A stretch of 64,000 bases of DNA from a virus. Lineage: Duplodnaviria > Caudoviricetes. The position numbers and the translations under genes were made by a program. How positions within the stretch are numbered: position 1 is the first letter of the stretch; the number at the start of each line of letters is the position of its first letter. Shown here piece by piece: positions 15,475-33,490 of this stretch. Location of the stretch: IMG/VR virus record IMGVR_UViG_3300027708_000013; one strand, 5' to 3'. Under the pieces are notes generated by a model that did not search any database, had not been told where the DNA came from, and saw nothing but the letters and a program-made list of their open reading frames with translations.

Positions 15475-16995
15475 CTAGTAGATACTGATGGGATCCACTA
15501 TGACCAACTGTCCGTTGGCACGTCTTCTAATATTTTCAATCTGACCCAAATCCAAATTATAACCTTTGGGTCCAACTAGACCCTCAATGATCGCTTCGGT
15601 GGCATATATTAGGCCATCCAATTCTTGTTCGCTGATGCCGGAGGGTCTTGGTTTATTCATCATGAACGCATTTACCCCCAGCTGACCGCGTGCCATGGCT
15701 GTCATTAAATCCTCAATGTACTCTAGAGTAGCTTCTTCACTGGCCACATACTCCAAATACTCTGTTTCGTACACAAAATAAGTTTCTTCGCCCAGCTGAA
15801 AATCTCCTGAATTGTATATTCGTGGATAATGTGGGTTGCGTTGATTGCGTTGAAAAAACTCCACATAGTCACGCACAGCTTGTTCTCTATCACCATCACC
15901 CACACCCAGCACCTTGACTATGGTGTTTCTTGGACTTTTGAAAACTATTTGATCCCGCCCTTCACCCACGTACTTGTAGCCTTTTGAAAAGAAATAATCC
16001 TGTATTCTTTCGCTCACTTCAAGTTCATCTGCATCGTTGACTTCTTTTACTAATTCTTTTTTCTGTTGTTCCCAGATATTTTTACTTGGTTTATGTTTGT
16101 TCCAAAACCCAGCACCAGCCGCAGTTTGTGAAGGATTACGGCGTATTTTATATCCTTGATTTTTCATATAGTCATACATGGTGGCAGCAATGCCTTGACC
16201 ACGACAGCGATCATCAACTTCTAAATCTTCTGGTGTAAGATATTCGCCATCAAATGAAAACAGCACATGTCCCAGTTCTTGACCGTCGCTTCTAGCAATA
16301 ACATATATGAGTGGTTCATCATCCGGGTCAGCTATATAACCTTCAATATCATCTTGTGTTTCAATTGAAATATCTATGCCGTTGTAGTGTACAGTTTTGG
16401 CCTCTGCAACAGATTCTCTCGCAAATTCTCTGGCTCTGCCTTCTGGATCCACATGCCAAGCATAGAATCTTGTGTCGGGATATTCCTGCTTCAATTCCAT
16501 AAAACTGTTCAAGTTGGGCACAGCATCATCATACATGATGGCCTTGGTGTAACTACCTTGATCTAATAAATCACGTATGATCTTCTTTTTCTTTTCTTCT
16601 GTGGTAGCACCCTGCATGTTGCCGGCACGGTACACATGCACACGACTCATGTCAACACCGTACTTGCGGAACGTGTCTAAAAATAATTCTTTATCATCAA
16701 AGTCAGCTCTGGCCGTCACCATCACAACTCGGTTGCCTGTGGCAATATCGTGCTTGAGTTGATTCATCATGGGAATAATTGGACGCGATTTTTCAAAGAA
16801 TTCTTGTGCGTTTCTAAAGTCCGCAAAGTCAAATTCCTCGCCAGGCTGGAGTCGGTACAGTGTAAAGTCATGACTGTTTAAACTTTTAACTACAGCACCA
16901 TTGCGAATCACATGCACTTGAGTTTGCGTGTGCACCAAGGTGTCGTCTATGTCAAAGACAACTAATTTACTTGGTTGTATTTCATCAGCTCTCAC
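15475..16995 (-). CDS. Tri-domain protein: HAD phosphatase + GNAT acetyltransferase + protein-kinase-like domain
   Basis: VVFDIDDTL/YDD (HAD); LEVDDRCRGQGIA..MY (GNAT motif A); VGEGRDQIVF..VKVL, YPRIY, LDL..ENI...LVIVDP (kinase-like). Confidence 0.7.
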   Translation of the reverse strand: MRADEIQPSKLVVFDIDDTLVHTQTQVHVIRNGAVVKSLNSHDFTLYRLQPGEEFDFADFRNAQEFFEKSRPIIPMMNQLKHDIATGNRVVMVTARADFDDKELFLDTFRKYGVDMSRVHVYRAGNMQGATTEEKKKKIIRDLLDQGSYTKAIMYDDAVPNLNSFMELKQEYPDTRFYAWHVDPEGRAREFARESVAEAKTVHYNGIDISIETQDDIEGYIADPDDEPLIYVIARSDGQELGHVLFSFDGEYLTPEDLEVDDRCRGQGIAATMYDYMKNQGYKIRRNPSQTAAGAGFWNKHKPSKNIWEQQKKELVKEVNDADELEVSERIQDYFFSKGYKYVGEGRDQIVFKSPRNTIVKVLGVGDGDREQAVRDYVEFFQRNQRNPHYPRIYNSGDFQLGEETYFVYETEYLEYVASEEATLEYIEDLMTAMARGQLGVNAFMMNKPRPSGISEQELDGLIYATEAIIEGLVGPKGYNLDLGQIENIRRRANGQLVIVDPISIY

Positions 16996-17366
16996 GATTC
17001 AAAAAACTCCGGATGCTGTTCGCCAAAGTCACGCATGAGTACACCGGCTTCAGCATTGGCTTGATTTTCGGCCGCACTGCCTGTGGCTCCATCACCTGGA
17101 TCTAGTTCGTCCTGTTCTCTTTGACGTGCATGCACCAGCTCATGTGCCAGGGTACGTAACACATCAACGGGGTGTCTATCGCCCACAACTAGGTTTATTT
17201 GTTCTGTGTCTAGGTCAAATCCACCAAAGGCAGTGCCAGTGGGTTCACGAAGCAATCGAATTTTGGGAACAGATTTTAATTTTACTTGATCAACAAACCA
17301 AGGCAAGTACTGCCGAACCACTGACACAGTGTCCTGACCTTCAACCAGTATCTCAACAATTTTCAT
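16992..17366 (-). CDS. Zincin-like metallopeptidase with short Glu-ending leader
   Basis: RTLAHELVHARQ (HExxH), downstream E..ANA.AG; starts MKIVEILVE-G. Confidence 0.7.
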   Translation of the reverse strand: MKIVEILVEGQDTVSVVRQYLPWFVDQVKLKSVPKIRLLREPTGTAFGGFDLDTEQINLVVGDRHPVDVLRTLAHELVHARQREQDELDPGDGATGSAAENQANAEAGVLMRDFGEQHPEFFES

Positions 17367-18166
17367 TTTTTATGGCCTGACTTCATGTTGGCACACCATT
17401 GATACATTCGTTTACGTTCTCCCGATGCTGCTTTGGCTTTTTGTTTTAGACTGGTCACCGATCCCTTACAACTGGCACCTGCACGTTTTACACGTCCGGG
17501 ACGACTCTTGCCTCGGACCTTGCCATCGGCAAAGTTTTCTTTTACTACTTGTGCTTGTTGTGCCAATTCTGGAGTCACTGTGAATTCACTGTTGGGTGCC
17601 GAGGCCACACTATCGGTGTACTGTGCTAAATCTTGAGTGGGCACATCTATATAGGTCAATGATCCACCGTACTGTTGTAAAAACGGTAATGCTATGCCCA
17701 CTAAACTGTTGGTAAAAGTTGGATTTTGTCCCACTTCGCCGGGCCTATTGCCGCGCCACAAGCGTGTGTGGCCAGACTCAACAGGAGCCAGTTGACTTTC
17801 AATCTCCTGTGCCTGCTGTATCAAACTTTGAATACGTGGCGTGTCCATGTAACTTTGACCGTTGTAGTTTAATCCAGTGTTTTCTTTTAACTTTTGTTTC
17901 TTAATCCAATTGTCCGGAATGAGATTGTGTGCTTTGACAAAATCATCATGTAGTTTTTGACCTGTTATGTTGTGACTCCGGCAGATTCGTTGCATCATGG
18001 CATCTATGTTTTCATAGTTCATCTCGGTGCCGTTTTTCTTGGCACGTATCAGGGCCGTTTCTAATGCTGCTACTGCTCCATCCTTGGCTGTGCCCTTGGC
18101 GGATAAAGGCTCCATGGGTCCGGAGTATTTGCCTTCTATTAGATCAACGATTTCTAAGATTTTCAT
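17363..18166 (-). CDS. Modular protein with leader MKILEIVDLIE and basic C-terminal module
   Basis: Modules separated by LKE/VKE; K/R-rich Cys-containing tail. Confidence 0.7.
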   Translation of the reverse strand: MKILEIVDLIEGKYSGPMEPLSAKGTAKDGAVAALETALIRAKKNGTEMNYENIDAMMQRICRSHNITGQKLHDDFVKAHNLIPDNWIKKQKLKENTGLNYNGQSYMDTPRIQSLIQQAQEIESQLAPVESGHTRLWRGNRPGEVGQNPTFTNSLVGIALPFLQQYGGSLTYIDVPTQDLAQYTDSVASAPNSEFTVTPELAQQAQVVKENFADGKVRGKSRPGRVKRAGASCKGSVTSLKQKAKAASGERKRMYQWCANMKSGHKK

Positions 18167-18242
18167 ACAGGTGCGTAGGGATTCGTTGGTCTATCATCGT
18201 TGGGGTTTTCCTTTTCAGGATACACAGGATAAGGATAGTTCA

Positions 18243-19622
18243 TCAGCAGTTCCAACGTCGACGTGCTTTACAAATGGCCTTGTCCGGAGTCTTGGCACAC
18301 GAAATATTATGCATCTTCATTTGTCCTCGGCTTCTTGAACAGTAGCTTTTTCTACGCTTTGACGCTTTACTACCACGCTTTAGCTTTGACGGCTTGGTGG
18401 TTACAGCAGTTTTTAATTTTGAACCTGGATGTTCTCTACGATAGGCATTGACAGCTTTTTGACTCATACCTGAAGTGTGATCCCGTTTATTGACCTTTTG
18501 CCAATCTTCTGTGATGGTTTGCTGTGTAACTGCAAACACATACAGTTCGTCATCTGTTAATGATTCTAGGTCTTCCCATATCACTTCGGCATCTACACTG
18601 TTGTGATCAGCCAATCCTTCAATGATGCTTTCAACTAAATCAAACTCTTCGTCCAATTCATCATCATCTTCAGGACCTTCGGTATTCCGTATGTCATTGG
18701 AAATATCCATCATGCTTGCATCCGACATCCTGGACTGGGTCACAGCCCAATCCAACAGCTCTTGGAATTCTGTTTTGTCGGTCAGGATGGCCGGTTCCAA
18801 GGTTTTCAGCTGAGCTATCAGTTGCGGATAACTAGCCAGGGTCTTGATGGCAGTAGCTCTATCCATTTGCCAAGCCTTGATGGTCATGGCCGCACGATAG
18901 GCTGCACGACCCACTGGATCATCATCCAGCTCGCCGTCGTCCCAGTTGTGATCTTCGGGAGGTGCAAATTCCTTTAAGTTGTCTTCCGATACCCCTTGAT
19001 TTTCGTGATCGTTGATCAAATCATGTGCCTGTTGAACAAAAGGCCGATATCTATCTGTCATCTTGTAAGCAAAGTATTTCACTTTTCCATTGAGAAAAAT
19101 ATCACCTTCGAGTATGCCTCGAGCTGAATTGACCATGCAGTCACCCATTTGCTCGCCATCCTCATCGATCACATCAAAATGGTAGTTATAACTGCGTTTG
19201 CCATGGTTCTCAGCTTGTATCCCAGCCGAAACAAGAACCAATTGTGGCATATAGTCCTCGCCAGAGTCTCTGTTAGGAGAAAATTCGTTGAGTCGGTCTT
19301 CTTCAGTGACACTTTCATTGGGCACACATTTACGAACTTGTCCACCGTTCTTGCCCCGCTTGGTTCCTTCGGCATGATGATTTGGCCAGCAACGGGTAAA
19401 ACCGTTGGCGTCTTTTTGACCTTTGGCAATTTCATTGATGTTGCCGTGTGTTTCACACCGACCGCAGTCCGGGCAAGTCATTTCCATCACTTCATGACTT
19501 TCATTATGCTTGCGTTTACCAGCACAGTGAGCCCGTTGACTAAAACCTTTGGGATGACTGCAATTAATACTGTTTTTGTATTTTTGACTCCACTTTTCTG
19601 TTAGTATTTCATTGATTCTCAT
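18243..19622 (-). CDS. Modular protein (leader MRINEILTE) with several small Cys-containing basic modules
   Basis: ATG 19622 overlaps the Dps stop; modules KWSQKYKNSINC, CPDCGRC, CWPNHH..CVP, RRKSYCSRS..RRRWNC; acidic spacers. Confidence 0.7.
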   Translation of the reverse strand: MRINEILTEKWSQKYKNSINCSHPKGFSQRAHCAGKRKHNESHEVMEMTCPDCGRCETHGNINEIAKGQKDANGFTRCWPNHHAEGTKRGKNGGQVRKCVPNESVTEEDRLNEFSPNRDSGEDYMPQLVLVSAGIQAENHGKRSYNYHFDVIDEDGEQMGDCMVNSARGILEGDIFLNGKVKYFAYKMTDRYRPFVQQAHDLINDHENQGVSEDNLKEFAPPEDHNWDDGELDDDPVGRAAYRAAMTIKAWQMDRATAIKTLASYPQLIAQLKTLEPAILTDKTEFQELLDWAVTQSRMSDASMMDISNDIRNTEGPEDDDELDEEFDLVESIIEGLADHNSVDAEVIWEDLESLTDDELYVFAVTQQTITEDWQKVNKRDHTSGMSQKAVNAYRREHPGSKLKTAVTTKPSKLKRGSKASKRRKSYCSRSRGQMKMHNISCAKTPDKAICKARRRWNC

Positions 19623-20056
19623 TTTAATGTACTCCTTAACATCCATGCGTGTTTTCTAAAGGCATCCATTCTTTCAGCAAGAAAATTGCTGAAGCCGTGT
19701 TCACCTGCGGCTTCAGCTTGGTCGTAAACAATCTTTAATATTTTAAACATTTTATCTGCATCGTTCAATAGTTCCGCCACCATCTTCTCTGCCACCCACA
19801 CTGCACTTTCATCTTCAATGCGGGTCAGCATGGCGAATCTACTGTTTGACCCCGGAGCATAAGCACCCAAACTTCGTATTTTCTCAGCGAATTCATCCAC
19901 AGCACCATACACTTCGGTGTAGATGGTTTCAAATAAACTATGTAGTTCTTGAAAGTGTATACCTTCCACGTTCCAGTGGAAGTAGTGACTTTTCAAATAA
20001 AAAGTATAGTGACTGGCAAAGGCTATCTTTGCTGCTTGTGTTAGTTCATCGTTCAT
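19619..20056 (-). CDS. dps: Dps/ferritin-like DNA-protection protein
   Basis: HYFHWNVEG..F..LH..FE.IY, DEFAEKIRSLG, KHAWMLRS. Confidence 0.9.
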   Translation of the reverse strand: MNDELTQAAKIAFASHYTFYLKSHYFHWNVEGIHFQELHSLFETIYTEVYGAVDEFAEKIRSLGAYAPGSNSRFAMLTRIEDESAVWVAEKMVAELLNDADKMFKILKIVYDQAEAAGEHGFSNFLAERMDAFRKHAWMLRSTLK

Positions 20057-23000
20057 AGTATCTCGTATCCTGCTCGTTTAAGTTGTTGTAGGTAATTTTC
20101 CATGATGTCAAGTTCGTCATCGTCATCTTCTACCGGTATCAGCTGATCAAATGTGGCTGACCATCCGCGACCTTGTTTGTCACCGATCCAGCAACGACCA
20201 CGTTCTTGGTCACAGTGACTCACTGTGAATATCTCATCTGGGCGATCTGCGTACTCTGGTGTGAGTTTGACCTGCATGCCGTTGCGGAATGATTGCGAGC
20301 CTTCCTTCATTAAAGCACTACCACCATGATGCTTTTCGATATCTTGTTCTTTGCTGCTGATAGAATAATCCATAACACCGACAATCTTATCTACTGCCTG
20401 AGCAATTTCGCTTTGAACCCAGTCTGGCAAATCTTCATTGCTACCAATGGCATTGTCTAAATGGGTTATTACTCTTTTCATGGTGTGTAATTGATTTTTA
20501 ACAAAATCGCCCTCGCCTTGACTATGATTGTCAGCATCAACATTTTTTAATTGTGTATCATTGACATTGCCGTTGTATTCCGTTACACCGTGTATGGGGC
20601 TGATGCTGTCCACTGCCACTGGCATGTTGCTATCCTCAGATGCAACTCCAGTCACTGGCTTCAATGTAGCAGCCAACACTTTGAAAAGTTTGCCGGTCCA
20701 ATCTCGGATGACAACCTTTCCGCCCTCAATGCCCTGCACTGTGCAGGGTCGATTTGAAATACCCTCGTGCCGTACCTGTTTGCCCTTGGCTAACCAGCTT
20801 GGAACTGCTGATTCCGCCACACCTTGTTGGTCCAGACCATCTACGCTTTGCCACGCATGAGCAAATGCTTGATTCAGTGCTTGAGTAATTCCTGGATATT
20901 TTGATTCCCAGTTAAACTCGTCCAAACTTTTTTGATTCATAAGAATATTATAGATACCTTTAGCACCAGTATCCGCCACATCAATGATCCAGTCCGATGC
21001 TTGCCAATTCTTTGATAAGTTTTTAGCAACAAAACGAATTTGTTGAACTGCTTCCTTGGCTTCTTGATCGGCTTGTTCTTTTGAATATCCCAATTGAGAA
21101 ACATTTTCTTTTCGAGTGCGAAGAATATTGTTACGCAGTAAGGTAGCAAAACGCTGGGCCATCTGTTCTACTTTTGTTTGAACTTCTGGAGATAAAGTTC
21201 CTCTGCCTTCCGCCACACCCGGCTCGCCTGTGATGGCCTGTAACATGGCACGGGCAACCACACGATCTTTTTCTTTTTCATCTTCTGGCAATTGAGCATA
21301 GTTCTGTGTTACCAGTCGTTGACGCTGTGCCAATTTGGCTTGTAATTTTTCCGGAGCCATTGTTTTGCTATCATCAAATATCATTGGATTTTGTATAAAT
21401 GCCTGTGCAGTGACATTCCACCCTCTATGGATGGCATCACTGATCTTTTCAATGTCAGTCTCACCCGAGTCAATCATCTTTTTAGCATAAGCAGCTGATT
21501 TCAAGTTGGCCTGCCATCCAAATGTGTTACCTGGTGTGCTACGACCATAATGATAAGCCGCGTCTAGGGCCTCATCACTGATGGTGGCCAACTGTTCTAC
21601 ACTCAATGGTTTTCCAGCGGCTTCGGCCAGGCCACTGTGTACACGGGTCTTCAGTTGTTCCAGCACTTCATAGGCGGCTGTTAGATCCTGTTGTGCTTTG
21701 GCACGACCCTGATCGGTTTTCAGTATTTTTGTTTTTTTGTATAATTCACGGATTTGCGACTGCACTTTTTTGATTTCACCCATGGTGGCTGTTTCTGGAT
21801 GTTGAAACAGATCCTTGAACGCCTGTGCCAATGCGACGCCATAGACTGCTAGTCCGGATCCAATCACAACGCCAATGCCGGAGAGGTGATTGAGATTTTC
21901 GGGTTTCAAAGGACTATAGGGATTCATGGGACTAAAGGGACTCATGGGATTCAAAGGATTGGTGCTCCAAGAGCTTTCATTGGTGGTGCTGTGTGTGGAG
22001 CCTTCTGTCACACCCGGCTTTTTAGTCATGTACCGGTCAGCATCTGCGGCTCTGCACTGTGCTGGATCTAAAGGATCAAACTTTGCATTTCCAATTGTAA
22101 AATTCTTGCCGTATTTCTTATAAAGACTATTTGCAAGATTTTCTCTGGCTCGACTGGCTGTTGACAGAGAGGGAAATACTTTCCAGTAGATGTTATCGCC
22201 ACCTTGAGTTTTCCTCCACCAAACCACTTGCGGAGTATTTTCTATTGGGCCATTACGATCAACATAGCCTTCCGCCACAACTTGGAATTTACTTTGTATC
22301 TCTTGTAATGCTTGAGCCAACAGTTCGGTTGGTGCCCGGCTGAGTAATTGTGATATATCGTTATGGAACTGACGGTATAACTGACCCCAAGTTGGGCAAC
22401 TATACGCCATTGCATGAGCACGATTACTACTGCCTTCTTGATCTAGAGAGCGAACGTATTTCCAAAGTTCACGTCTAATCGTGTCACGATCGGTTGGAGC
22501 AACTAATTCTCTACGTGCATCTCTAGACAACGGAGCAGTTTCCTCCACACCCGACCGTTGTTTAACCTGCTGTCGTTGTTTTAATTTTAATTTAGTCTGT
22601 GGATCTAATGCCCATCCTGGCTTGTGCCCGGTTGGTTGACTTGTTGAAGCTTTGTGATTTTTCTCCCAAGCAGATCGCATTAGATCCCCTTCGGCCACAT
22701 CCTTCTTGTTGATGTCATCAGTGCCGTGTTCAACGCCGCCGCCAAACAGTTCATGCCAAACCATTGTAAGCACTGGTGCATAGGCTCTAGAGCCGGGCAC
22801 AGTGTTTAATATTTGGTATATGGGTGCCAACCTATTCCAATAATCGGTATAGTTTTCGCTGTAGTCCAACACCGAATGCCAACTGTCTTCTCCGTCTGCT
22901 GGATTTCCATCCTCATCTTCGTCATTACCGGCAAAGGCTCTAGGTCCTATGCGTTTCCACAGTTGCATCATCTCCTGGTATGCACCTCCATCACTGCCAT

Positions 23001-24252
23001 AGAAATGTCCACCGGGATATCCATTGGGGAACATGTCGGGAAACATGCCAACAATCTTGTCAGCTGATTGGCTTTTTTCTTGATATTGGGGGAATTGACG
23101 AATTATGTCAGCCCACTGTTTGGCTATGGTTTGAAATTTTCCACTGGATACCAGTTTACTCAACATGGTGTCAAATTTCAAATCACCAGTGACTTCACCT
23201 AAATTATCTTTGCCATGTACACGATTCAATGCACGATCAACACCTTTTTTGCGTTGCGGACCTTTTGGTCCAAAGGTTTTCTCTATCTTGCCATACATGT
23301 CGCGTTGTACGCCACCCAGCTTTTCGGCTTGTTTTTTGGTCACATCCAATAGATATTGCTCGGCTTTTTCTATTGAGGTTTCCGTTACATCTCGCACAGC
23401 AACACCGTAGCGACGCAACAGGTTCCTGCCATCACTCACTCTAAATGCACCTTTTACATAAGGTCCCACTCGCTTGATGGCTTTTTGTTCTATATGGGGT
23501 AGATGCATTTCAGCCTGTTCGGGGGTGTTGTATTCACCGTATATCACTGCTGCACCGTCCCAGGCCCATACATAATATAATCCGGGGTCAACTGGGTACT
23601 CTCTACCTTGAATGGTTTCAATTGCTTCCGCCACACCATCTTCTTTCATTTTATCCAGCTCGTGTTGTGGAATTCCTTTTTTTCTGAGATAAAAGTCTCT
23701 AGCTCGTTTACCAACCTCAGGGGTATAATTGAATAGCACACTGGCTGGGGTCAATGGTGGAGGATGTCCATGGGCTTTGATATATGCTTTACGTTCTGCT
23801 TTTTCTTCTGGACTTCTCGCATCATGACGCCCGCTTTCCTCCACACCTTTGCTCATAGTAGGACCTGTTGTAGGTAGTTCTTCAAACTCAGCGTATGCAT
23901 CAAATACATCCTTATAGCCTTGTTGCTGGGCTAGTTTGTCAAAGTAATTATATGATACTCGGTATTTCTGCATTAGTGGTTTTAATGCATCTGTTGGGTC
24001 AATGTCTGGATAGCCCTGTGTTAGTGCAGAAATAACTTCTGGCCAGCTTGGACCACCGGAGCCTTCCTCCACACCCGAGCCAACGGGACTGGCCACATTG
24101 TCTGAATCCTGTGTGGCCGCCACACCGTTCAAGCCAGCTGAGGTGAATAGATCCGTGTCTTCGGCAAACTCGTGTATGATTTCAATTCGAGATTCGCTAA
24201 CCGTGGGTTTGCTTGGTTTTTTGTTGCTGTCAAATAAGTCGTATATGTTCAT
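20053..24252 (-). CDS. 1399-aa GVxE-linked cassette polyprotein (includes RyR-like, SH3-like and helical modules)
   Basis: Eight G-V-x-E linkers plus DVAE/VVAE/GLAE/DVTE variants; YAQLPEDEKEKDRVVAR resembles the RyR repeat. Confidence 0.75.
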   Translation of the reverse strand: MNIYDLFDSNKKPSKPTVSESRIEIIHEFAEDTDLFTSAGLNGVAATQDSDNVASPVGSGVEEGSGGPSWPEVISALTQGYPDIDPTDALKPLMQKYRVSYNYFDKLAQQQGYKDVFDAYAEFEELPTTGPTMSKGVEESGRHDARSPEEKAERKAYIKAHGHPPPLTPASVLFNYTPEVGKRARDFYLRKKGIPQHELDKMKEDGVAEAIETIQGREYPVDPGLYYVWAWDGAAVIYGEYNTPEQAEMHLPHIEQKAIKRVGPYVKGAFRVSDGRNLLRRYGVAVRDVTETSIEKAEQYLLDVTKKQAEKLGGVQRDMYGKIEKTFGPKGPQRKKGVDRALNRVHGKDNLGEVTGDLKFDTMLSKLVSSGKFQTIAKQWADIIRQFPQYQEKSQSADKIVGMFPDMFPNGYPGGHFYGSDGGAYQEMMQLWKRIGPRAFAGNDEDEDGNPADGEDSWHSVLDYSENYTDYWNRLAPIYQILNTVPGSRAYAPVLTMVWHELFGGGVEHGTDDINKKDVAEGDLMRSAWEKNHKASTSQPTGHKPGWALDPQTKLKLKQRQQVKQRSGVEETAPLSRDARRELVAPTDRDTIRRELWKYVRSLDQEGSSNRAHAMAYSCPTWGQLYRQFHNDISQLLSRAPTELLAQALQEIQSKFQVVAEGYVDRNGPIENTPQVVWWRKTQGGDNIYWKVFPSLSTASRARENLANSLYKKYGKNFTIGNAKFDPLDPAQCRAADADRYMTKKPGVTEGSTHSTTNESSWSTNPLNPMSPFSPMNPYSPLKPENLNHLSGIGVVIGSGLAVYGVALAQAFKDLFQHPETATMGEIKKVQSQIRELYKKTKILKTDQGRAKAQQDLTAAYEVLEQLKTRVHSGLAEAAGKPLSVEQLATISDEALDAAYHYGRSTPGNTFGWQANLKSAAYAKKMIDSGETDIEKISDAIHRGWNVTAQAFIQNPMIFDDSKTMAPEKLQAKLAQRQRLVTQNYAQLPEDEKEKDRVVARAMLQAITGEPGVAEGRGTLSPEVQTKVEQMAQRFATLLRNNILRTRKENVSQLGYSKEQADQEAKEAVQQIRFVAKNLSKNWQASDWIIDVADTGAKGIYNILMNQKSLDEFNWESKYPGITQALNQAFAHAWQSVDGLDQQGVAESAVPSWLAKGKQVRHEGISNRPCTVQGIEGGKVVIRDWTGKLFKVLAATLKPVTGVASEDSNMPVAVDSISPIHGVTEYNGNVNDTQLKNVDADNHSQGEGDFVKNQLHTMKRVITHLDNAIGSNEDLPDWVQSEIAQAVDKIVGVMDYSISSKEQDIEKHHGGSALMKEGSQSFRNGMQVKLTPEYADRPDEIFTVSHCDQERGRCWIGDKQGRGWSATFDQLIPVEDDDDELDIMENYLQQLKRAGYEIL

Positions 24253-24941
24253 CGTGTAGTTCCTGCTGAAGGTGGTGTTGTGGCAGAGGGTGCTGGTGTT
24301 GTGCTAGTTCCAGGCTGTGCGGGTTGACCGGCAGTAGCCGAGGCAGTGCCAGCTGTGGGAGTTTGTCCCATGGACTTTTGAGCCTGTTGTACCTGTTTGT
24401 TTTTTTGTAATTCTGTTTGTTGTGTTTTATCCAACAATGCTTTGAACTGACTGGCAGTTTGTGGATTCTGTAACATGTTGCTGGCAGCCACAGCCAATGG
24501 GCCCAGCTGATTTTGTTCTTGATTGCTGAGGTCAGTGCTGGGAGCCTGATCTAATTTATCCATTACCGCAGTGAACTTGGCAGGATTCATCTGCTGAGCA
24601 GCACCCAGCTGATTTAACTTTGGTTTGATTTGATTCACTGATTTTTGTATCTGTGATTGATCTGTTTTCTGTTGAAGGGCCGCTGGATCGGGTTTTTGTG
24701 CAGTGGAGCCCGGGGCGGTTTGAGCGGCAGCTCCATATCCGCCCACGCCACCGTATTCAGTAACGTAGGAGTAATACTCCTGCATTAGCTCACGGGCAGT
24801 TTGTTTCACCTGCGGACGACTTTTTAATTCAGCTTGTAATTCTCGCAGTACACTTTCAGTGACAAGGGTTGATGGTTGATCCAACGGCGTTGCGGTGTCA
24901 GCAATGGTGTCCATACGATGGATTAATGTACGTAGATTCAT
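24249..24941 (-). CDS. Low-complexity Q/A/T/P-rich protein in the cargo operon
   Basis: Coupled ORF; LVTE/YVTE sites; disordered-looking tail. Confidence 0.7.
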   Translation of the reverse strand: MNLRTLIHRMDTIADTATPLDQPSTLVTESVLRELQAELKSRPQVKQTARELMQEYYSYVTEYGGVGGYGAAAQTAPGSTAQKPDPAALQQKTDQSQIQKSVNQIKPKLNQLGAAQQMNPAKFTAVMDKLDQAPSTDLSNQEQNQLGPLAVAASNMLQNPQTASQFKALLDKTQQTELQKNKQVQQAQKSMGQTPTAGTASATAGQPAQPGTSTTPAPSATTPPSAGTTR

Positions 24942-27670
24942 CAGCGTTTGATCATACTTTCTTTTTTCACTGACTTCTTACGAAAAGGACTGCTGGGGTT
25001 CTTGTAAGTACCACCAAACAGTGTACCGGTTCCGGGTCCTGAGCCTGGAGTGATTGCTGTGCTGATTGAACTGGAAAAAGTTTCGGCTATACGATCTAGA
25101 TCTTGATCCAGGGTGGGTAATTCTTTTGTTTTCTTAAGAGCTTGTCCGGTTAAGTTGTGTACTTTGCCTTGAGGATTTTTCTTAGGATTGGTTGGTTTCC
25201 ATGGGCCTTCGTCTCGCCAACTGGTGACATTTCCATCTTTATCTTTTGTTTCAGTTCTGTCTTCCGACACACCCGGCTTCTTGACACCCAGGTTGGCTGC
25301 TGGATTGCCGCCACCAAACATGCTGTCAAAAGCATCTTTAGATTGTTGTTTGGTGTCTGCTGTTCGTTGTTTGGCTACTGCTTTTTTACCAGTGATGCCT
25401 TTAAACATCTTGTCAAACTTTGGGTCGCCGGTGGCTTCCGCTACACCCGACTCTGGTAAATTAGGTTTGCGGTGTTGGCCAAGCTGACCTTTAATAGCGG
25501 CTTTAAGATCGCCTGAACGACGGGCTCTCTGCTGATCAGCAAATTCTTTTGTCTCTGGACTTGCACCGGGAGTATTCATTCCAGGAATATTCCCTAGATC
25601 GGTTTGACCTGGTCTAGGAAATTTATGTGCAGTGTTCATACCTGTGCGAGCCCTCAGTCTGTCTGGACTTGTTCCTAATGCTTCCGCCACACCTTCACCA
25701 AATCTATTTGTTGGGGATACATTGCGTGGATCAGAGAAGTCAGCACTAGGCTCAGGCATACTATATTCATGAACTTCGTGAACCCACTCCTCTGGAATAT
25801 CTAACTTACGAGCAATAGTTGCCGCTGGTACACCCTTTACCAGCAAGTCAATGATCTGTTGATCAATTTTACTTTGTGGGCCATTGCCTTCCGCCACACC
25901 CGACTTGCCAGCAGGAACAACTTCAATTTTACTAAATTTACTGTTTTTCATTCGTGCTTTGAATTTTTCTTCAGCGTCTTGCGGATTCAATGCTTTGATT
26001 GTGGCGCTGGAATAGCTTGTTCCAGACTGACCAAAATAGCCCTTGACATCATACACTTGTCCGGGCTGGGCATTGAAATCTGCCTGCATTTTTTTCAAAT
26101 TCATTACACTCTGCTTGCTGATTCCGCCGGGATTGCCGCGACGAGGTTTTTTAAGAGCGGCCTGATACGGAGTATGTATATCTTTTTGTGTATCAAAACC
26201 TTGTTTATCCAGGTAATGCAATACATCGTCGCTGACCTGGGTGTCGAGATCAAATAGTGCGGCAATACCAGCAGTCATTCCTTTGTGTAAAAAAGTTTCT
26301 CCTACTTCTTTGATCATTTCTCCGTCTTCTGCAGAAGCTTCATCATCCCACAATGTGCTGTACTGTTTGCTGAACTCAACAATAGCTGTACCATACTGTA
26401 GCGGGCCATTGTTACCTTCTCCGCCGGGTGCAAATTCGTTTAGTTTACCATTGGCTGACTTTGCATCTTTTTCTAATACACTTGCTGCATGTTGTAAAAA
26501 ATCAATTAAATCATATGCTGTTACAATCTCATAAGGTGTCATGGCACGGCCAAGATCAATGCTCCAGTCGTCCAACTCGTAACGACCTGAGGTTACAATT
26601 TTTGCATAACGCAAGATCCATTGACGTGCTTTTGCAAGATTTGGACTGGCCAAGTCGCGAGTACGATTTAGTACATCATACAACGTATCAATGTGTTGAC
26701 CTGGATCTGCTACTTCTTGATCAATTGCTGAAATTATATCTTCAAGGCCCAGAGACTGTGTATCCGCTTGTTTTTTACTAGTGATGTTGTTGAGCCAGGT
26801 GTCAAATTTTATATCGCCGGTTGCTTCCGCCACACCTTGCTTGCTACTCATTCTTTTCAACAAACTCACAGCATAAACCAAATGCTGGCCAAGTTCTTTT
26901 CGTTGATCTGTTCCTGGTTTAGCATTGCTATTTTTCTGTATACTCTTTGCTAAATTTTCGGCGGCAAGTGCTTGACGGGCCAAATCACCATTGGACCGAT
27001 TGCCAACGATTTGATTTAAAAATCCACGCTTGCGGTTGGCTTGATTTGCACCATCAATTAGTGCCTTAACAATTTTATCTATCTGTTCAGCTGTTGCTCT
27101 ATCACCCACTGTGACAAACTCATCGTGGCGTGTTTCCCAATCCAAGCCTTCCTCCACACCTTGTTCTTCATTCACAGCCCGGTGTTTCACATCCTTCAAG
27201 TGTGCATCAACACCCGCGGTGTTTTTTAATTTCCATTTGGCAGCGGCCTTTCGAGCAGCTTCATAGGAAGTTTTGGCTGTTACTTCGCACTGACCTTTTT
27301 TTGCGTGTACACAAACATAAGCACGTTCTGCATCACTCTCGCCCAACAATTCAGCAAACTTTTCTTCAGCTTCGGCAATGTTGAACACTGTCATGCCACT
27401 GGCATGGGGTCTTTCGCCGCTCATGACATCGTACTCCAACCATTCGACCACAGTTTTTAAATAGTCATTGGCTAGACTGATCTTTTCAGCGGCCCAAGCA
27501 TCCAGTTCGTGCCCGTCGGGTAATTTGCCCAGTAATTGATGTAGTTTGATTGCGTTGGCAGCCGAGTGATAGCACTCTTCTCTCAGCATGTGGTGTTGTT
27601 GGCTCTTATGCATTTGATGTGCGTCATCGCCAATAAATTCGTGTTCTGTGATAAAATCTTGTGGTTTCAT
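24941..27670 (-). CDS. 909-aa GVxE-linked cassette polyprotein (leader MKPQDFITE)
   Basis: Six GVxE linkers; HTH-like module (IIDLLVKGVPAATIARKLDIPEEWV); two ATGDxKFD modules. Confidence 0.75.
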   Translation of the reverse strand: MKPQDFITEHEFIGDDAHQMHKSQQHHMLREECYHSAANAIKLHQLLGKLPDGHELDAWAAEKISLANDYLKTVVEWLEYDVMSGERPHASGMTVFNIAEAEEKFAELLGESDAERAYVCVHAKKGQCEVTAKTSYEAARKAAAKWKLKNTAGVDAHLKDVKHRAVNEEQGVEEGLDWETRHDEFVTVGDRATAEQIDKIVKALIDGANQANRKRGFLNQIVGNRSNGDLARQALAAENLAKSIQKNSNAKPGTDQRKELGQHLVYAVSLLKRMSSKQGVAEATGDIKFDTWLNNITSKKQADTQSLGLEDIISAIDQEVADPGQHIDTLYDVLNRTRDLASPNLAKARQWILRYAKIVTSGRYELDDWSIDLGRAMTPYEIVTAYDLIDFLQHAASVLEKDAKSANGKLNEFAPGGEGNNGPLQYGTAIVEFSKQYSTLWDDEASAEDGEMIKEVGETFLHKGMTAGIAALFDLDTQVSDDVLHYLDKQGFDTQKDIHTPYQAALKKPRRGNPGGISKQSVMNLKKMQADFNAQPGQVYDVKGYFGQSGTSYSSATIKALNPQDAEEKFKARMKNSKFSKIEVVPAGKSGVAEGNGPQSKIDQQIIDLLVKGVPAATIARKLDIPEEWVHEVHEYSMPEPSADFSDPRNVSPTNRFGEGVAEALGTSPDRLRARTGMNTAHKFPRPGQTDLGNIPGMNTPGASPETKEFADQQRARRSGDLKAAIKGQLGQHRKPNLPESGVAEATGDPKFDKMFKGITGKKAVAKQRTADTKQQSKDAFDSMFGGGNPAANLGVKKPGVSEDRTETKDKDGNVTSWRDEGPWKPTNPKKNPQGKVHNLTGQALKKTKELPTLDQDLDRIAETFSSSISTAITPGSGPGTGTLFGGTYKNPSSPFRKKSVKKESMIKR

Positions 27671-27690
27671 GCGTTAAACTCCAGTATATT

Positions 27691-27701
27691 ATAGTATTTA
27701 G
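27691..27701 (-). promoter_or_regulatory. T4-late-like promoter CTAAATACTAT
   Basis: Matches the core of T4 TATAAATA(ctatt); heads the coupled 27670-15475 gene chain. Confidence 0.65.
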
Positions 27702-27704
27702 CAG

Positions 27705-27983
27705 CTAGATTGTAAACGATAAATCTTGACTGCTGATGCCGGCACCGTTGACAGTAAAATTTTGTGTGCTTATACAACCTTGTGTAACACATTCCTGTAC
27801 TGTTAACTGATGTGTTCCCGGCTCAAGATCTACTTCAATATTTTCTTGAACATAAACACTGTATGCGGGCCAACGCCAAGTGCGTTCAGTGAGTAGATCA
27901 CTGTCAACATAAACTCTATACACCGGAGCACCCTCAGCAGTAGAGTTGCAATGAACATCTACAGAGAGTGCCAATAAGGTCAT
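27705..27983 (-). CDS. Small beta-rich hypothetical protein
   Basis: ATGA overlap with upstream stop; YRVYVDSDLLTERTW. Confidence 0.6.
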   Translation of the reverse strand: MTLLALSVDVHCNSTAEGAPVYRVYVDSDLLTERTWRWPAYSVYVQENIEVDLEPGTHQLTVQECVTQGCISTQNFTVNGAGISSQDLSFTI

Positions 27984-28828
27984 CGATACGTGCCTTGCCA
28001 AAGTTGCTGAATTTTACTCTTTAACTCGGCAATTTTCTTTTGATAGTGGGGTTTGGCAGCAGAATCAATGTTGCTATCGGCAATCAAGTCCTGATAGTGG
28101 TCAATGTCATCGCGATATTTTTTAATCAAGTACACAGTGGCATCCACAGTGGGATTGCTTTCTGCCACACCTTGTTGTACAGTTTCATCTAACACACTGC
28201 TTAATAATTTCAAAGCACGTTGGGGATTTTTTGGGTATAGTGTTTGTGCAATTTTTGCACGACCTGCAGGCGTGGCCTTTGCCCAAGCAGCACGTATTTC
28301 ACTGGCACTGGTGACTCCACCTGCAAATTCCACAGTGGGCAAATAGGCCATGTAGGCATGTTGAGCCAAGGGTAGAAGATTTTTGATATTAGTAAAAGAC
28401 TGCAAATAGTTGCTTACTGGTTGCCCCTTACGTGGCCCACGAGTAACCAAAGGTAATTTACCTGTTGCAGGATCAACTTTTGCTGGTTGTGGTGCTTGGT
28501 TGCGATCTTTTTCGCTACGCACAAATATCAATGCTGTAGCTGTGGGATCATAGTGATCTACAATTTCCTTTGCAGTAAAAGGACTTTTGACCTGTACAAA
28601 GTGGTCTGCTGGAACACCAGCGATGGTGGCCAATTCTTGTTTAACTGCAAAAGGTATCGGACGTTCGCTAGTATCGTTGGTAGAAGCCACATATACATCA
28701 GCTCCAGGAAATGCCCGCAGTGCGGATGTGTAAAGAGACATGTGTCCAGGAGTCCATGGATGAAATCCCCCCGGCATTATCACAAGAGTTTTTAGAGTCG
28801 TTGCTTCAAATAAATCTGCTATGAACAT
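27980..28828 (-). CDS. Cytidylyltransferase-like (HxGH) nucleotidyltransferase with leader and a C-terminal GVAE module
   Basis: VIMPGGFHPWTPGH, SASEIR; starts MFIADLFE-A; QQGVAE-S before the last helix. Confidence 0.75.
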   Translation of the reverse strand: MFIADLFEATTLKTLVIMPGGFHPWTPGHMSLYTSALRAFPGADVYVASTNDTSERPIPFAVKQELATIAGVPADHFVQVKSPFTAKEIVDHYDPTATALIFVRSEKDRNQAPQPAKVDPATGKLPLVTRGPRKGQPVSNYLQSFTNIKNLLPLAQHAYMAYLPTVEFAGGVTSASEIRAAWAKATPAGRAKIAQTLYPKNPQRALKLLSSVLDETVQQGVAESNPTVDATVYLIKKYRDDIDHYQDLIADSNIDSAAKPHYQKKIAELKSKIQQLWQGTYR

Positions 28829-30513: not shown

Positions 30514-31230
30514 TTAGCCAGGCGCTGACACCATGGCATGAATATTTGATATTAATGCAGGGTTTATTAGGCCAATAAACGTAACAATCGCTGGATCGTT
30601 GGTGTAAAAGAACACACCCCAAGTGCTTTCATACTGTTTATTCAGCATGTCTTTAGATGTTTTGCTTAGTTTAACTGTGTCGCCTAGATTTTCTAAATAG
30701 TGTAATAATTGTTGTTTAGTTTGAAGTGAATATCTACCATCGCGTACAATTACTTTGTGTGAGTATGCCCATGGTGTTGGTGTTACAATGGCACCGCACT
30801 GTAACAATGGCACCATTTCCGGCTGTGGGTATGTGATAGATTCTATATATTTTGGATCAATCTTCAATGCTATGGTTTTTAATGTGGCTTCATCTTGGGT
30901 ATAAAATTGTATGTTGGGTTCTTCTATACGTGTTCTAACTGAGCCAGACATGCCTGTTTTGATCTCTTGAACTGTACGCAACAGCGTTAAATCTACTAGA
31001 TCCAAGTTGGGAGATCTATAAAACCAACCAGTTTTACCAAAATTATATCCAGATTGAGCCATAGCACGTCTATGTTCCAACGCCGCTTCAAGACTTGCAA
31101 GTTTTGAATCCAACAGTCTACCGCCTTCGGCATGTATTACCAAACGCCAAAGATATCTACCGTGAAATTGCTTCACAGTGGTAGCGAGTTTGATACCCGG
31201 TTGTATTTTATTCCAGAACGATGAGTCCAT
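30514..31230 (-). CDS. Hypothetical protein
   Basis: 238-aa ORF coupled to clpA. Confidence 0.65.
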   Translation of the reverse strand: MDSSFWNKIQPGIKLATTVKQFHGRYLWRLVIHAEGGRLLDSKLASLEAALEHRRAMAQSGYNFGKTGWFYRSPNLDLVDLTLLRTVQEIKTGMSGSVRTRIEEPNIQFYTQDEATLKTIALKIDPKYIESITYPQPEMVPLLQCGAIVTPTPWAYSHKVIVRDGRYSLQTKQQLLHYLENLGDTVKLSKTSKDMLNKQYESTWGVFFYTNDPAIVTFIGLINPALISNIHAMVSAPG

Positions 31231-33490
31231 CGGCGTCCACTGTGGCTTGGGTTGGTACTGAGATTGATTCGAATGTCAATGCTTCATCCACACAGTCAAC
31301 AACCACTGTGGTAGATTCAGGAATCTTTTCAAATAGTATTTTTTTACTCAAGGGTACTTTGATTAAATCGTTAATTTTACGTGCCATGGGTCTAGCACCC
31401 ATTTGACTGTCATGTCCTACTCTGGCTAGATAATCTATTGCTGATTCGGTCAGTCTAACACGAATAGATTTTTCGCTGAGTAATTCATTGAGTTCATTGA
31501 TGAACTTGGCTACAATCTTTTTCATACTCAGTGCATCTAGCCGATTAAACTTGCAAACTCCATCCAGTCTGTTGCGAAACTCAGGTTTAAAGAACTCCCG
31601 AACTGCTCGGTCATCTTCATCACTTCGGTTGATGTCGCCAAATCCTATGCTTTTACGTTCATTGTCGGCAGCACCTAGATTGCTGGTTAAAATAACAATA
31701 CAGTTACGTGCATCGGCTTTTTTACCATTACTGCTGGTGACAACACCTTCGTCCATCAAGCTCAGCAACACATTGACAACATCCGGATGTGCCTTTTCAA
31801 TTTCATCAAACAACAACACACTGTTGGAGTTTTTCTCAATATCGGATATTAATAATCCTCCGCCTAGATTGCCATCATCGTAGCCAACATAGCCGGGAGG
31901 AGCACCAATCAGTTTACTTGCGGCATGCTTTTCTTGATACTCGCTCATGTCGTAACGCAACAGTTTCATTCCAAGATTTTCACTCAGTAGTTTTGCCAAC
32001 TCAGTTTTACCTGTGCCGGTGGGCCCTAAAAACAAAAAGTTGCCAATGGGCTTGTTGATTGATTTCAATCCAGCACGGCTGACATAGATCTTTTCCAATA
32101 CAGTGTCCACTACCGATTCTTGTCCGTATAGGCGATTTTTAATATTGCTTTCTAAACTGTCAAGATTTTTAATTGACTCGGTGCCGATTTGATCCACTGG
32201 GATTTTGGTAAATCTACTGATGACATCTACAATGTCACCGCGTTGTACACACCAATCAGTTTCACGTATTTTTAATCTAGCACAGGCTGAATCAATCAAA
32301 TCAATGGCCTTGTCCGGCAATCGTTTATCTGTTTGATAACGTACACTCAAGTCCACAGCAGCATCAATAGCTGAGTCGTCAATGACGCCGCCATGAAATG
32401 TTTCGAAGTGTGTGCGTAGGCCACGCAGTATATCTTTGGCCACAGCAGGTGTTGGTTCTTCCACTGTTAATCTATGGAAGCGACGCATGAGAGCACGATC
32501 TTTTTCAAAACTTTGACTGTATTCTTCCCATGTGGTTGACGCAATAACTTTGATTTGACCTTTGGCCAAGGCTGGCTTGATCATGTTAGAAAAGTCTACA
32601 TTGCTTTGGCTTCCGGCTCCGGCACCACGCATTTGATGTGCTTCATCAATAAACAATATGCATTTGCCTTGAGCAATCAAAGCGGCAACGACATCTTTGA
32701 GCTTTTCCTCAAAGTCTCCGCGATACTTGCTGCCGGCCAATAGACTTCCAATGTCCAGGTTATAAACTGTATGGTCCCGCAAATAGTCAGGAACTGCTCC
32801 ATCCACTATGTTTTTTGCCAAGCCTTCGGCAATGGCAGTTTTACCAACACCGGGATCACCAATTAGTAATATGTTTGATTTATTGCGTTTGGCCAACACC
32901 TGTGCTATTTCATCAATCTCGTAATCTCTACCAATCACAGGATCAATTTTGCCCGCACGTGCCTGTGCATTCAAGTCGGTACAGTACTGTTCTAATGTTT
33001 CAGTAGATTTGATATTGACAGCACGGGCCTTACCACGCTTGGTGGAATAATTGTCATTGTAATAATCCAATACATCTTGACGATTGTCAAGTCCATATTT
33101 TAATAAAAAATAATGTGCGTAACTGTTGTGTTCGGCAAACACACTGATGTATAAATCAATCACCTGCATGGTGGATCTGCCACTGAACAGCACTTGAGTA
33201 AATGCACGATTAAACACACGTTCCAGTGCATTGGTTTTCTTGGGTTCTGTGAACTCCACAGCACTGACTAAGAATACCTGGTCGGATAGATAATTATCTA
33301 AATCGTTTTGTAATCCCTCAACATCTACGCCGTAACTATCTAAAAATTCACCAAACGGCTCATATGCGACTAGACTTTTTAGCAAGTGTTCCAAAGTCAC
33401 ATATTCGTGATTCAGTGCCCTGGCAGTGTCGCTGGCATTTTTAATAATTACTTCTATTTCAGGATTGGGTTGTATCATCCGGTCTTCCAA
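31208..33490 (-). CDS. clpA: ATP-dependent Clp protease ATP-binding subunit ClpA-like
   Basis: Clp-N, two AAA+ modules (GDPGVGKT, FIDEAH; GPTGTGKT, LFDEIEKAH), GAPPGYVG and IGF loop (KSIGFG). Confidence 0.9.
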   Translation of the reverse strand: MEDRMIQPNPEIEVIIKNASDTARALNHEYVTLEHLLKSLVAYEPFGEFLDSYGVDVEGLQNDLDNYLSDQVFLVSAVEFTEPKKTNALERVFNRAFTQVLFSGRSTMQVIDLYISVFAEHNSYAHYFLLKYGLDNRQDVLDYYNDNYSTKRGKARAVNIKSTETLEQYCTDLNAQARAGKIDPVIGRDYEIDEIAQVLAKRNKSNILLIGDPGVGKTAIAEGLAKNIVDGAVPDYLRDHTVYNLDIGSLLAGSKYRGDFEEKLKDVVAALIAQGKCILFIDEAHQMRGAGAGSQSNVDFSNMIKPALAKGQIKVIASTTWEEYSQSFEKDRALMRRFHRLTVEEPTPAVAKDILRGLRTHFETFHGGVIDDSAIDAAVDLSVRYQTDKRLPDKAIDLIDSACARLKIRETDWCVQRGDIVDVISRFTKIPVDQIGTESIKNLDSLESNIKNRLYGQESVVDTVLEKIYVSRAGLKSINKPIGNFLFLGPTGTGKTELAKLLSENLGMKLLRYDMSEYQEKHAASKLIGAPPGYVGYDDGNLGGGLLISDIEKNSNSVLLFDEIEKAHPDVVNVLLSLMDEGVVTSSNGKKADARNCIVILTSNLGAADNERKSIGFGDINRSDEDDRAVREFFKPEFRNRLDGVCKFNRLDALSMKKIVAKFINELNELLSEKSIRVRLTESAIDYLARVGHDSQMGARPMARKINDLIKVPLSKKILFEKIPESTTVVVDCVDEALTFESISVPTQATVDADGLIVLE

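Follow-up and report, generated by a model that had tools for sequence, protein, structure and literature searches.

ORF506 of an uncultured freshwater jumbo phage: a predicted chain of phosphatase, acetyltransferase and kinase cassettes joined by glutamate-ending linkers

The IMG/VR record IMGVR_UViG_3300027708_000013 (Duplodnaviria; Caudoviricetes) provides a stretch of 64,000 nucleotides (nt), hereafter the window, from an uncultured freshwater jumbo phage; most genes of the window are on the minus strand. We analysed one of its open reading frames (ORFs), ORF506, which lies at 15475-16995 (-) and codes for 506 amino acids (aa). A 13-kb block of cassette-array genes tagged with a short N-terminal leader (15475-28828) ends with this gene. 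The GTG start codon of ORF506, with GGAG ahead of it, overlaps the TGA stop of the 124-aa gene upstream, and the start residue is shared by the homologues. On its 3' side, a gap of 164 nt is followed by a TATAAT-type promoter for the next unit, composed of an 86-aa gene and the DNA polymerase gene. The gap and the new promoter indicate that ORF506 terminates the array operon. In terms of domain composition, ORF506 is almost certainly a chain of three self-sufficient enzyme cassettes, namely a HAD phosphatase, a minimal GNAT acetyltransferase and a Ser/Thr protein kinase devoid of C-lobe. The features of the gene and of its upstream neighbour are the following.

16969-16995 (-): N-terminal half-leader, residues 1-9, M/V-R-A-D-E-I-Q-P-S, which shares M-R-A-x-E-[IF] with the full leaders; the closing Glu is missing
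16417-16968 (-): HAD-superfamily phosphatase module, residues 10-193
16399-16416 (-): linker 1, residues 194-199, E-S-V-A-E / A, with A-R-E just ahead
16066-16398 (-): mini-GNAT acetyltransferase-like module, residues 200-310
16042-16065 (-): linker 2, residues 311-318, Q-K-K-E-L-V-K-E / V
15478-16041 (-): truncated protein-kinase-like module of the T7 gp0.7 type, residues 319-506 (188 aa)
16992-17366 (-): 124-aa upstream gene of the same leader-tagged block, translationally coupled to ORF506, with the leader M-K-I-V-E-I-L-V-E and an HExxH metallopeptidase-like motif

An earlier note on this DNA had read HAD, GNAT and kinase motifs in a single polypeptide. All three sets are present, and alignments and structure models seat them in real domains; for the models of residues 1-315 and of the C-terminal part, structural matches recovered the HAD, GNAT and kinase folds. 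The catalytic residues are not missing either, as the HAD motifs and the kinase Gly, Lys, Asp, Asn and Asp residues are invariant in alignments of their families.

In the HAD module, motif I (DIDDT) corresponds to residues 15-19 (D15/D17/T19), motif II to T94, motif III to K136 and motif IV to D156/D157. Residues D15, D17, D18, T19, T94, K136, D156 and D157 are invariant in an alignment of 23 family members. The AlphaFold model of residues 1-315 has a predicted local distance difference test score (pLDDT) of 79.5, with values below 50 for residues 1-6. Its HAD part matches the folds of the class B phosphatase AphA, the phosphatase domain of T4 Pnkp, the HAD domain of Legionella Lem4 and human MDP-1 (Foldseek probability 1.00, E values of 3e-4 to 4e-3). 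The ORF506 module has both the fold and the four catalytic motifs in common with AphA, the Pnkp phosphatase and Lem4, and it differs from them by an additional insert of ~45 residues between motifs I and II. At the sequence level, residues 9-159 match phrog_415, annotated as 'polynucleotide kinase', in the PHROGs database (E value 1.5e-8). The module falls below every curated Pfam cut-off (16.4 bits vs 22.6 for DUF2608, 15.4 vs 27 for Acid_phosphat_B and 15.6 vs 26.4 for Hydrolase). Its nearest Pfam families are Acid_phosphat_B and DUF2608, with scores of about 15-22 bits for cut-offs of 22.6-27, and Pfam assigns AphA to HAD subfamily IIIB. A sequence search of the PDB with ORF506 gave no useful match, and the HAD profile recovered no solved relative.

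The second module harbours the acetyl-CoA loop R-G-Q-G-I-A of GNAT enzymes (residues 263-268), which is conserved in relatives. It passes the Pfam Acetyltransf_1 cut-off marginally in ORF506 (21.1 bits vs 20.7), and a relative, P0030, reaches 32.8 bits. The corresponding part of the 1-315 model matches YpeA, PA4534, YjdJ and SP0256 over 77-113 columns. At ~105 aa the module is short in comparison with the ~160 aa of the complete fold, which includes helices alpha1-alpha2 and strands beta6-beta7, and the model has a low-confidence loop at residues 216-226. Because of this small size, catalytic competence is less certain for the GNAT module.

The kinase module was aligned with its homologues, and G346 of the Gly loop, the ATP-binding K361, D482 and N488 of the catalytic loop and the metal-binding D501 are invariant in the 46 aligned sequences. 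The model of the C-terminal 196 residues has a pLDDT of 91.6. Foldseek retrieved 277 PDB chains at E values of 1e-3 or better, and all of the matches listed have the kinase fold. The top 50 matches of a structural search independent of Foldseek are exclusively Ser/Thr/Tyr kinases, including Mps1 (Z 11.8) and PknE (Z 10.9). The structural matches span solved kinases from the N-lobe through the Asp of the DFG motif and then stop. ORF506 ends five residues past the DFG-like D501; hence, it has neither an activation segment nor a C-lobe.

This truncated module can be placed among phage kinases. The hhalign comparison of the profile of the 46 sequences with residues 65-219 of T7 gp0.7 gave a Prob of 97.05% and an E value of 7.7e-11 over 153 columns. 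On the strength of this profile alignment, the module does belong to the T7 protein-kinase lineage, albeit distantly; the direct match of ORF506 to PHROG 15752 (T7 gp0.7) has an E value of 0.0085 only, with ~20% identity. G-x-G ... V-x-K, a catalytic loop of the D-x-H-S-G-N-I-M type and the D-P motif are common to both kinases. In contrast, the C-terminal host-shutoff domain of gp0.7 has no counterpart in the ORF506 kinase, which is a mobile cassette. T7 gp0.7 is an early gene product, expressed from the injected DNA, and is not known as a virion protein. It phosphorylates host proteins, including translation factors, according to the account of Robertson and Nicholson (1992) given in PMC5512222. 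The shape of the ORF506 kinase, with the C-terminal subdomain lost and the active site kept, is also that of the kinases found in polyvalent phage proteins (PMC5512222). With the Pfam family of the latter (PF18762, Kinase-PolyVal; cut-off 27 bits), ORF506 gave no match, and 4 of the 46 relatives gave matches at E values of 0.011 or weaker; the relatives P0039 and P0042 score 20 bits. The truncated kinase forms a link between the T7 gp0.7 kinases and the C-lobe-less 'polyvalent' kinases, which had been distinct groups so far.

We searched 5.8 billion clusters for homologues of ORF506 and obtained at least 1,257 matches among the candidates scored. BLAST alignments with homologues break at residues 193-200, ~310 and 316, that is, at the linkers, which therefore mark true borders between modules rather than motifs that occur by chance. 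One protein, P0008, has the identical order of three modules, at 50% identity. The other architectures are two-module proteins made of HAD and kinase (381-383 aa, many clusters), HAD and GNAT (316 aa) or GNAT and kinase without HAD (P0038), and proteins with a different module between HAD and kinase. HAD modules 61-92% identical to that of ORF506 are also fused to ADP-ribosyltransferase (ART), GH19 lysozyme with LysM, dCMP deaminase, ParB_N, HD, DUF6321 and other domains. An exhaustive search with the kinase module yielded 115 representative clusters in which it is alone, first or last.

In homologues the modules are not always fused. A relative (L005, 87% identical) has a separate 199-aa HAD gene ending right after the domain and a separate 197-aa kinase gene two genes upstream. 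In another one (L037), the kinase has a gene of its own, the start of which overlaps the stop of a gene with a GNAT module. In L009 (IMGVR_UViG_3300032322_002561), the end of the HAD gene, ...H-R-T-TGA, overlaps the ATG-AGA-GCT start of the next gene (M-R-A-E-E-F), a split form illustrating how cassettes could be joined or split by the change of a single base. The locus itself is syntenic in relatives, with the array genes, the ferritin-like gene, the HAD gene, the 86-aa gene and the DNA polymerase gene. These varied fusions and split genes show that the fusion in ORF506 is one of many permutations and that, as judged from the gene architectures, the cassettes exist independently and re-assort freely. 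The earlier note had seen opposing writer and eraser activities in the chain. That the phosphatase and the kinase might form a conserved unit of this kind is weakened by the presence of HAD in only 3 of the 115 kinase-module representatives and by the occurrence of both modules alone in L005; the pairing is not an obligate unit in the sequences compared.

Among HAD-led proteins, a very common module after HAD (P0054, P0057, P0075 and others) consists of a Lys/Arg run followed by a Gly/Tyr-rich A-A-Y-G-P-G-P-Y-G-G-Y-G-Y segment, often then by GH19 lysozyme and LysM.

Megablast with 12 kb of the window found zero matches in 50,697 phage records, tblastn with ORF506 found one weak match only, to an uncultured 462-kb phage, and an exact 42-nt search of viral contigs found zero matches. 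Thus, there is no cultured relative with a virion proteome.

Both linkers end in [LIV]-x-Glu, and the breakpoints and low pLDDT values bear out the earlier reading of ESVAE (194-198) and LVKE (315-318) as genuine module junctions. They are predicted to be disordered, with pLDDT values below 50 at residues 195-199 and 304-315 in the 1-315 model and, in the kinase model, at positions 4-7 (residues 314-317), the first ~15 residues of this model being disordered. Linker 2, Q-K-K-E-L-V-K-E / V-N, aligns column by column with the N-terminus of a stand-alone kinase, M-R-A-Q-E-F-L-A-E / V-N. For N-terminal and internal modules alike, 40 of the 46 aligned sequences have Leu, Val or Ile at the P3 position, and 30 of the 46 have Glu at P1. 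Judged from the aligned columns, linker 2 is shown to be homologous to the N-terminal leader of stand-alone cassettes, i.e. to be a former leader. The GNAT modules of relatives have E-G-V-A-E / and W-E-Q-G-V-A-E / at their flanks. The E-S-V-A-E / A of ORF506, an instance of the family-wide [G/S]-V-A-E junction, is accordingly one version of the G-V-x-E junction found throughout the neighbouring 1399-aa and 909-aa genes. The codons of linker 1 differ at all third positions from the GGTGTGGCGGAA repeat of these neighbouring genes. As read from these codons, linker 1 is conserved as a peptide and not as DNA.

The leader itself can be described as MRAxEF[ILV]xE, a stretch of 9 aa with which stand-alone cassettes open. 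The looser [MV][RK]xx[ED][FILV]xxE is found at the start of 28 of the 44 best kinase-module representatives, and in 18 of these 28 the first module is unrelated. HAD-led homologues begin with [MV][RK]xx[ED][FILV] in 110 of 120 cases, only three of them with Glu at position 9. In the window, a loose leader pattern, which was devised after the leaders had been inspected, is present in seven of the nine genes of the 15475-28828 block and in none of the 56 others. In G003, a complete relative, a relaxed pattern allowing internal starts occurs in 17 of 396 genes, eight of which are located within 25 kb around the HAD gene. The strict 9-aa pattern occurs in two G003 genes, with the reservation that crude ORF calling extended several starts upstream and that some leaders have no Glu at position 9.

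This leader closely resembles the capsid-targeting sequence (CTS) of phage T4, MKTYQEFIAE (preprint 10.1101/2021.01.19.427310). A tag made of the first 10 residues of the T4 internal protein IPIII is enough for foreign proteins to be loaded into the head, and it is removed by the protease gp21 (PMC9026906, PMC3012670). The gp21-family proteases of T4, phiKZ, 201phi2-1 and SPN3US cut after Glu at x-X-E (PMC5694885). Similar to the cassettes, the T4 proteins IPI, IPII, IPIII and Alt have a leader of ~9-10 aa ending in hydrophobic-x-Glu. In both groups a constant tag precedes highly variable cargo, and one of the T4 proteins, Alt, is a packaged enzyme. Unlike T4 internal proteins, ORF506 is an enzyme chain in which the tag is repeated internally as a linker. 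In the giant phages phiKZ, 201phi2-1 and SPN3US, many head-internal proteins are also cut after Glu, at A/S/G-X-E (PMC5694885). The gp53 and gp54 proteins of SPN3US start with ...L-A-R-E-S-V-E, with predicted AXE and SXE sites (PMC5694885), a sequence close to the F-A-R-E-S-V-(A)-E end of the ORF506 HAD module, which may be a coincidence. In contrast with ORF506, the propeptides of these giant phages are long (>100 aa) and their cargo does not consist of enzyme cassettes.

We looked for the corresponding head proteins in related IMG/VR records. A homologue of T4 gp21 (Peptidase_S77) is encoded in four of five records of 154-343 kb (E values of 1e-26 to 1e-29). One of these protease-bearing records, G001, is syntenic with the window and codes for a HAD module 92% identical to that of ORF506. 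A Gp23-type major capsid protein is present in all four related records searched for it (E values of ~1e-96 to 1e-100), and the N-terminal propeptide region of the capsid protein has a conserved L-[KMR]-E just ahead of the conserved body. The L026-L029 head cluster codes for an acidic protein starting with M-N-K-F-E-Q-L-I-E, the S77 protease, a coiled-coil scaffold-like protein and the Gp23-type capsid protein, an order that mirrors T4 genes 68/67-21-22-23. The gp21-type protease and gp23-type capsid protein of relatives make packaging and Glu-cleavage of ORF506 plausible. By analogy with T4, we consider the chances evenly balanced that ORF506 is packaged in the prohead and cut after Glu.

In such a scenario, neighbouring cassette genes with leaders would have been fused to give the ORF506 chain, which would enter the prohead core in the manner of T4 internal proteins. 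A gp21-type prohead protease would then cut after Glu198 and Glu318 to yield pieces of ~23, 14 and 21.5 kDa, and these would be ejected together with the DNA. In the host, before phage gene expression, the kinase (like T7 gp0.7) and the acetyltransferase would modify host proteins, and the phosphatase would strip phosphate from a host protein or nucleotide substrate.

ORF506 thus construed combines two known themes, T4-type internal proteins and the polyvalent proteins described by Iyer, Burroughs, Anand, de Souza and Aravind in 2017 (PMC5512222). Like ORF506, the latter bring several unrelated effector domains together in one phage polypeptide. Their repertoire shows cassette-like variability and includes a Ser/Thr/Tyr-type kinase devoid of C-lobe, RimI-like GNATs, ARTs, ParB and lysozyme, and their delivery alongside the DNA is proposed (PMC5512222). 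A HAD phosphatase as lead module is not in that catalogue of polyvalent domains (PMC5512222). ORF506 also differs from polyvalent proteins by its small modules and its CTS-like linkers ending in Glu, and its likely processor is the prohead protease rather than an embedded peptidase domain. We tentatively propose, with somewhat less than even confidence, that in jumbo phages of fresh and marine waters the HAD-led proteins (>1,200 database clusters) may together make up a polymorphic system of injected effectors. Such a system would be composed of a conserved phosphatase head, swappable cassettes (T7-type kinase, mini-GNAT, ART, lysozyme, deaminase and ParB) and CTS-like leaders used as linkers, with one loading event and release by the prohead protease.

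If this proposal is true, ORF506 would carry the first host-takeover kinase of the T7 gp0.7 type to be pre-made in a virion and the first capsid-targeting tags reused as polyprotein cleavage sites. A large and abundant group of uncultured jumbo phages would bring a ready-made protein kinase, acetyltransferase and phosphatase into the cell, and the idea of T4 internal proteins would widen from small inhibitors to enzyme cocktails. It would also provide a sequence rule for finding injected effectors in metagenomes, namely an MRAxEF[ILV]xE leader together with Glu-ending linkers between modules.

The timing of expression bears on packaging, and we looked for late promoters in the window. The T4 late promoter TATAAATA is present in one copy, which is not above chance, and it was therefore rejected as a late signal. 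In contrast, GCTAAATA has five copies (27695, 30511, 47955, 52216 and 56604, all on the minus strand) vs 2.1 expected, and two of 100 shuffles reach five. All copies are on the coding strand. Four of them are found a short distance ahead of large, structural-looking genes, namely the 909-aa array gene, a tail-fibre-like gene and two further large, unknown ones. From its sequence and positions, GCTAAATA is a candidate late-promoter core related to T4 TATAAATA, and late expression of the block appears likely.

Several observations weigh against the packaging and cleavage of ORF506. Its own N-terminus, V/M-R-A-D-E-I-Q-P-S-K, is a half-leader only, without Glu at position 9. The Met-Arg start of the leaders may partly reflect ATGA stop/start overlaps. 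The weak [LIV]-x-E motif has nine copies in ORF506, mostly inside folded domains. Many HAD junctions read T-N-E and are unfit for an aliphatic P3 residue; the definition of the HAD junction as R-T-N-E was dropped, as alignments often place the junction at the next [VM]-x-E a few residues on. The three predicted pieces are acidic (pI 4.5-5.6), whereas T4 internal proteins are basic. The S77 protease is known from the records of relatives only. Finally, a near-consensus sigma-70 promoter at 27688-27716 overlaps the GCTAAATA copy at 27695, and hence late timing is not established. Several of these points, i.e. the missing full leader, the acidic products and the sigma-70-like promoter ahead of the block, would suit a protein that works after infection as a single uncleaved cytoplasmic multi-enzyme of 58 kDa. 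The linkers would then be tethers or fusion scars of ATGA overlaps, and the leader would serve translation initiation or coupling, or as a recombination joint. The small changes at overlapping stop/start sites that separate split from fused forms (L009, L037) fit this explanation too, as does the frequent fusion or adjacency of HAD to dCMP deaminase, a cytoplasmic enzyme of nucleotide metabolism. Against it, proteins with unrelated first modules have retained the 9-aa leader at the amino-acid level, its pattern matches the T4 CTS, and [LIV]-x-E is kept ahead of the kinase core whether the module is N-terminal or internal. In addition, the partner modules ART, lysozyme/LysM and ParB are typical of injected proteins (PMC5512222), and the leader-bearing genes are gathered in a single block. 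We regard the uncleaved multi-enzyme as a serious but rather unlikely explanation. Even if ORF506 is not cleaved, its family illustrates phage gene fusion and splitting at overlapping stop/start sites.

Two other explanations concern the substrates of the enzymes. ORF506 might be a toolkit acting on small molecules or nucleotides, with an AphA-type nucleotidase HAD and with a GNAT and a kinase fold acting on a metabolite or an antibiotic, like the bifunctional AAC(6')-APH(2''). The best HAD matches are indeed AphA nucleotide phosphatases, the HAD module is linked to dCMP deaminase, and APH(2'')-Ia, which makes up the kinase part of such a GNAT-kinase fusion, ranks among the best matches that Foldseek gave for the kinase module. 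We consider this improbable: the APH matches have template modelling (TM) scores of ~0.4 and root-mean-square deviations of ~16 A, the top 50 matches of the Foldseek-independent search are all protein kinases, the profile homology points to the T7 gp0.7 protein kinase, and the substrate-binding C-terminal lobe of APH is missing. The earlier note had also suggested that the HAD module could heal 3'-phosphate RNA ends after anticodon nuclease attack. In this role it would act on 2',3'-cyclic or 3'-phosphate ends, as does the phosphatase part of T4 Pnkp. The phrog_415 match and the presence of the T4 Pnkp phosphatase domain among the fold matches (ranks 15, 20 and 34) are in keeping with it. However, hhalign of the HAD family profile against T4 PseT/Pnkp gave a Prob of 48.6% and an E value of 1.8e-4 over 79 columns covering motifs I-II only, BLAST against T4 Pnkp found the DxDxT motif only, and AphA, Lem4 and MDP-1 are equal or better fold matches than Pnkp. 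The ~45-residue insert sets the module apart as well. ORF506 is devoid of a P-loop 5'-kinase module, as its two other modules are a GNAT and a protein-kinase fold and neither Pfam nor PHROGs gave a P-loop family match, and the neighbouring genes examined did not include an RNA ligase gene. The suggestion thus reduces to likeness within the HAD superfamily, with no specific support for the healing of 3'-phosphate ends, and we consider it very improbable.

The neighbouring genes of the block and beyond have features of their own. The 124-aa protein encoded upstream of ORF506 has an H-E-L-V-H motif with a Glu ~20 residues on, and its weak matches are all zinc metallopeptidases (M91, M78/IrrE-like, M76 and SprT-like); from these motifs, it may be a leader-tagged mini-protease. 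The next gene, at 17363-18166 (-), codes for a 267-aa protein with a C-terminal E-N-F-A-D-G-K module. The gene at 18243-19646 (-) codes for a 467-aa protein that ends in a DUF6321 domain; this protein also has M-R-I-N-E-I-L-T-E as an internal leader and a Cys/His-rich module, W-S-Q-K-Y-K...C-S-H-P-K-G-F-S. In many other phages, the Cys/His-rich module of the DUF6321 protein and the E-N-F-A-D-G-K module recur immediately after HAD. A Dps/ferritin-like protein (Pfam Ferritin, E value 1.4e-20), devoid of leader, is encoded within the leader-tagged block at 19619-20056 (-), a position that is kept in relatives. Outside of the block, the gene at 31208-33490 (-) codes for a 760-aa ClpA/ClpB-like 'ATP-dependent protease' ATPase (phrog_4871, E value 1.9e-241), which is conserved in G003.

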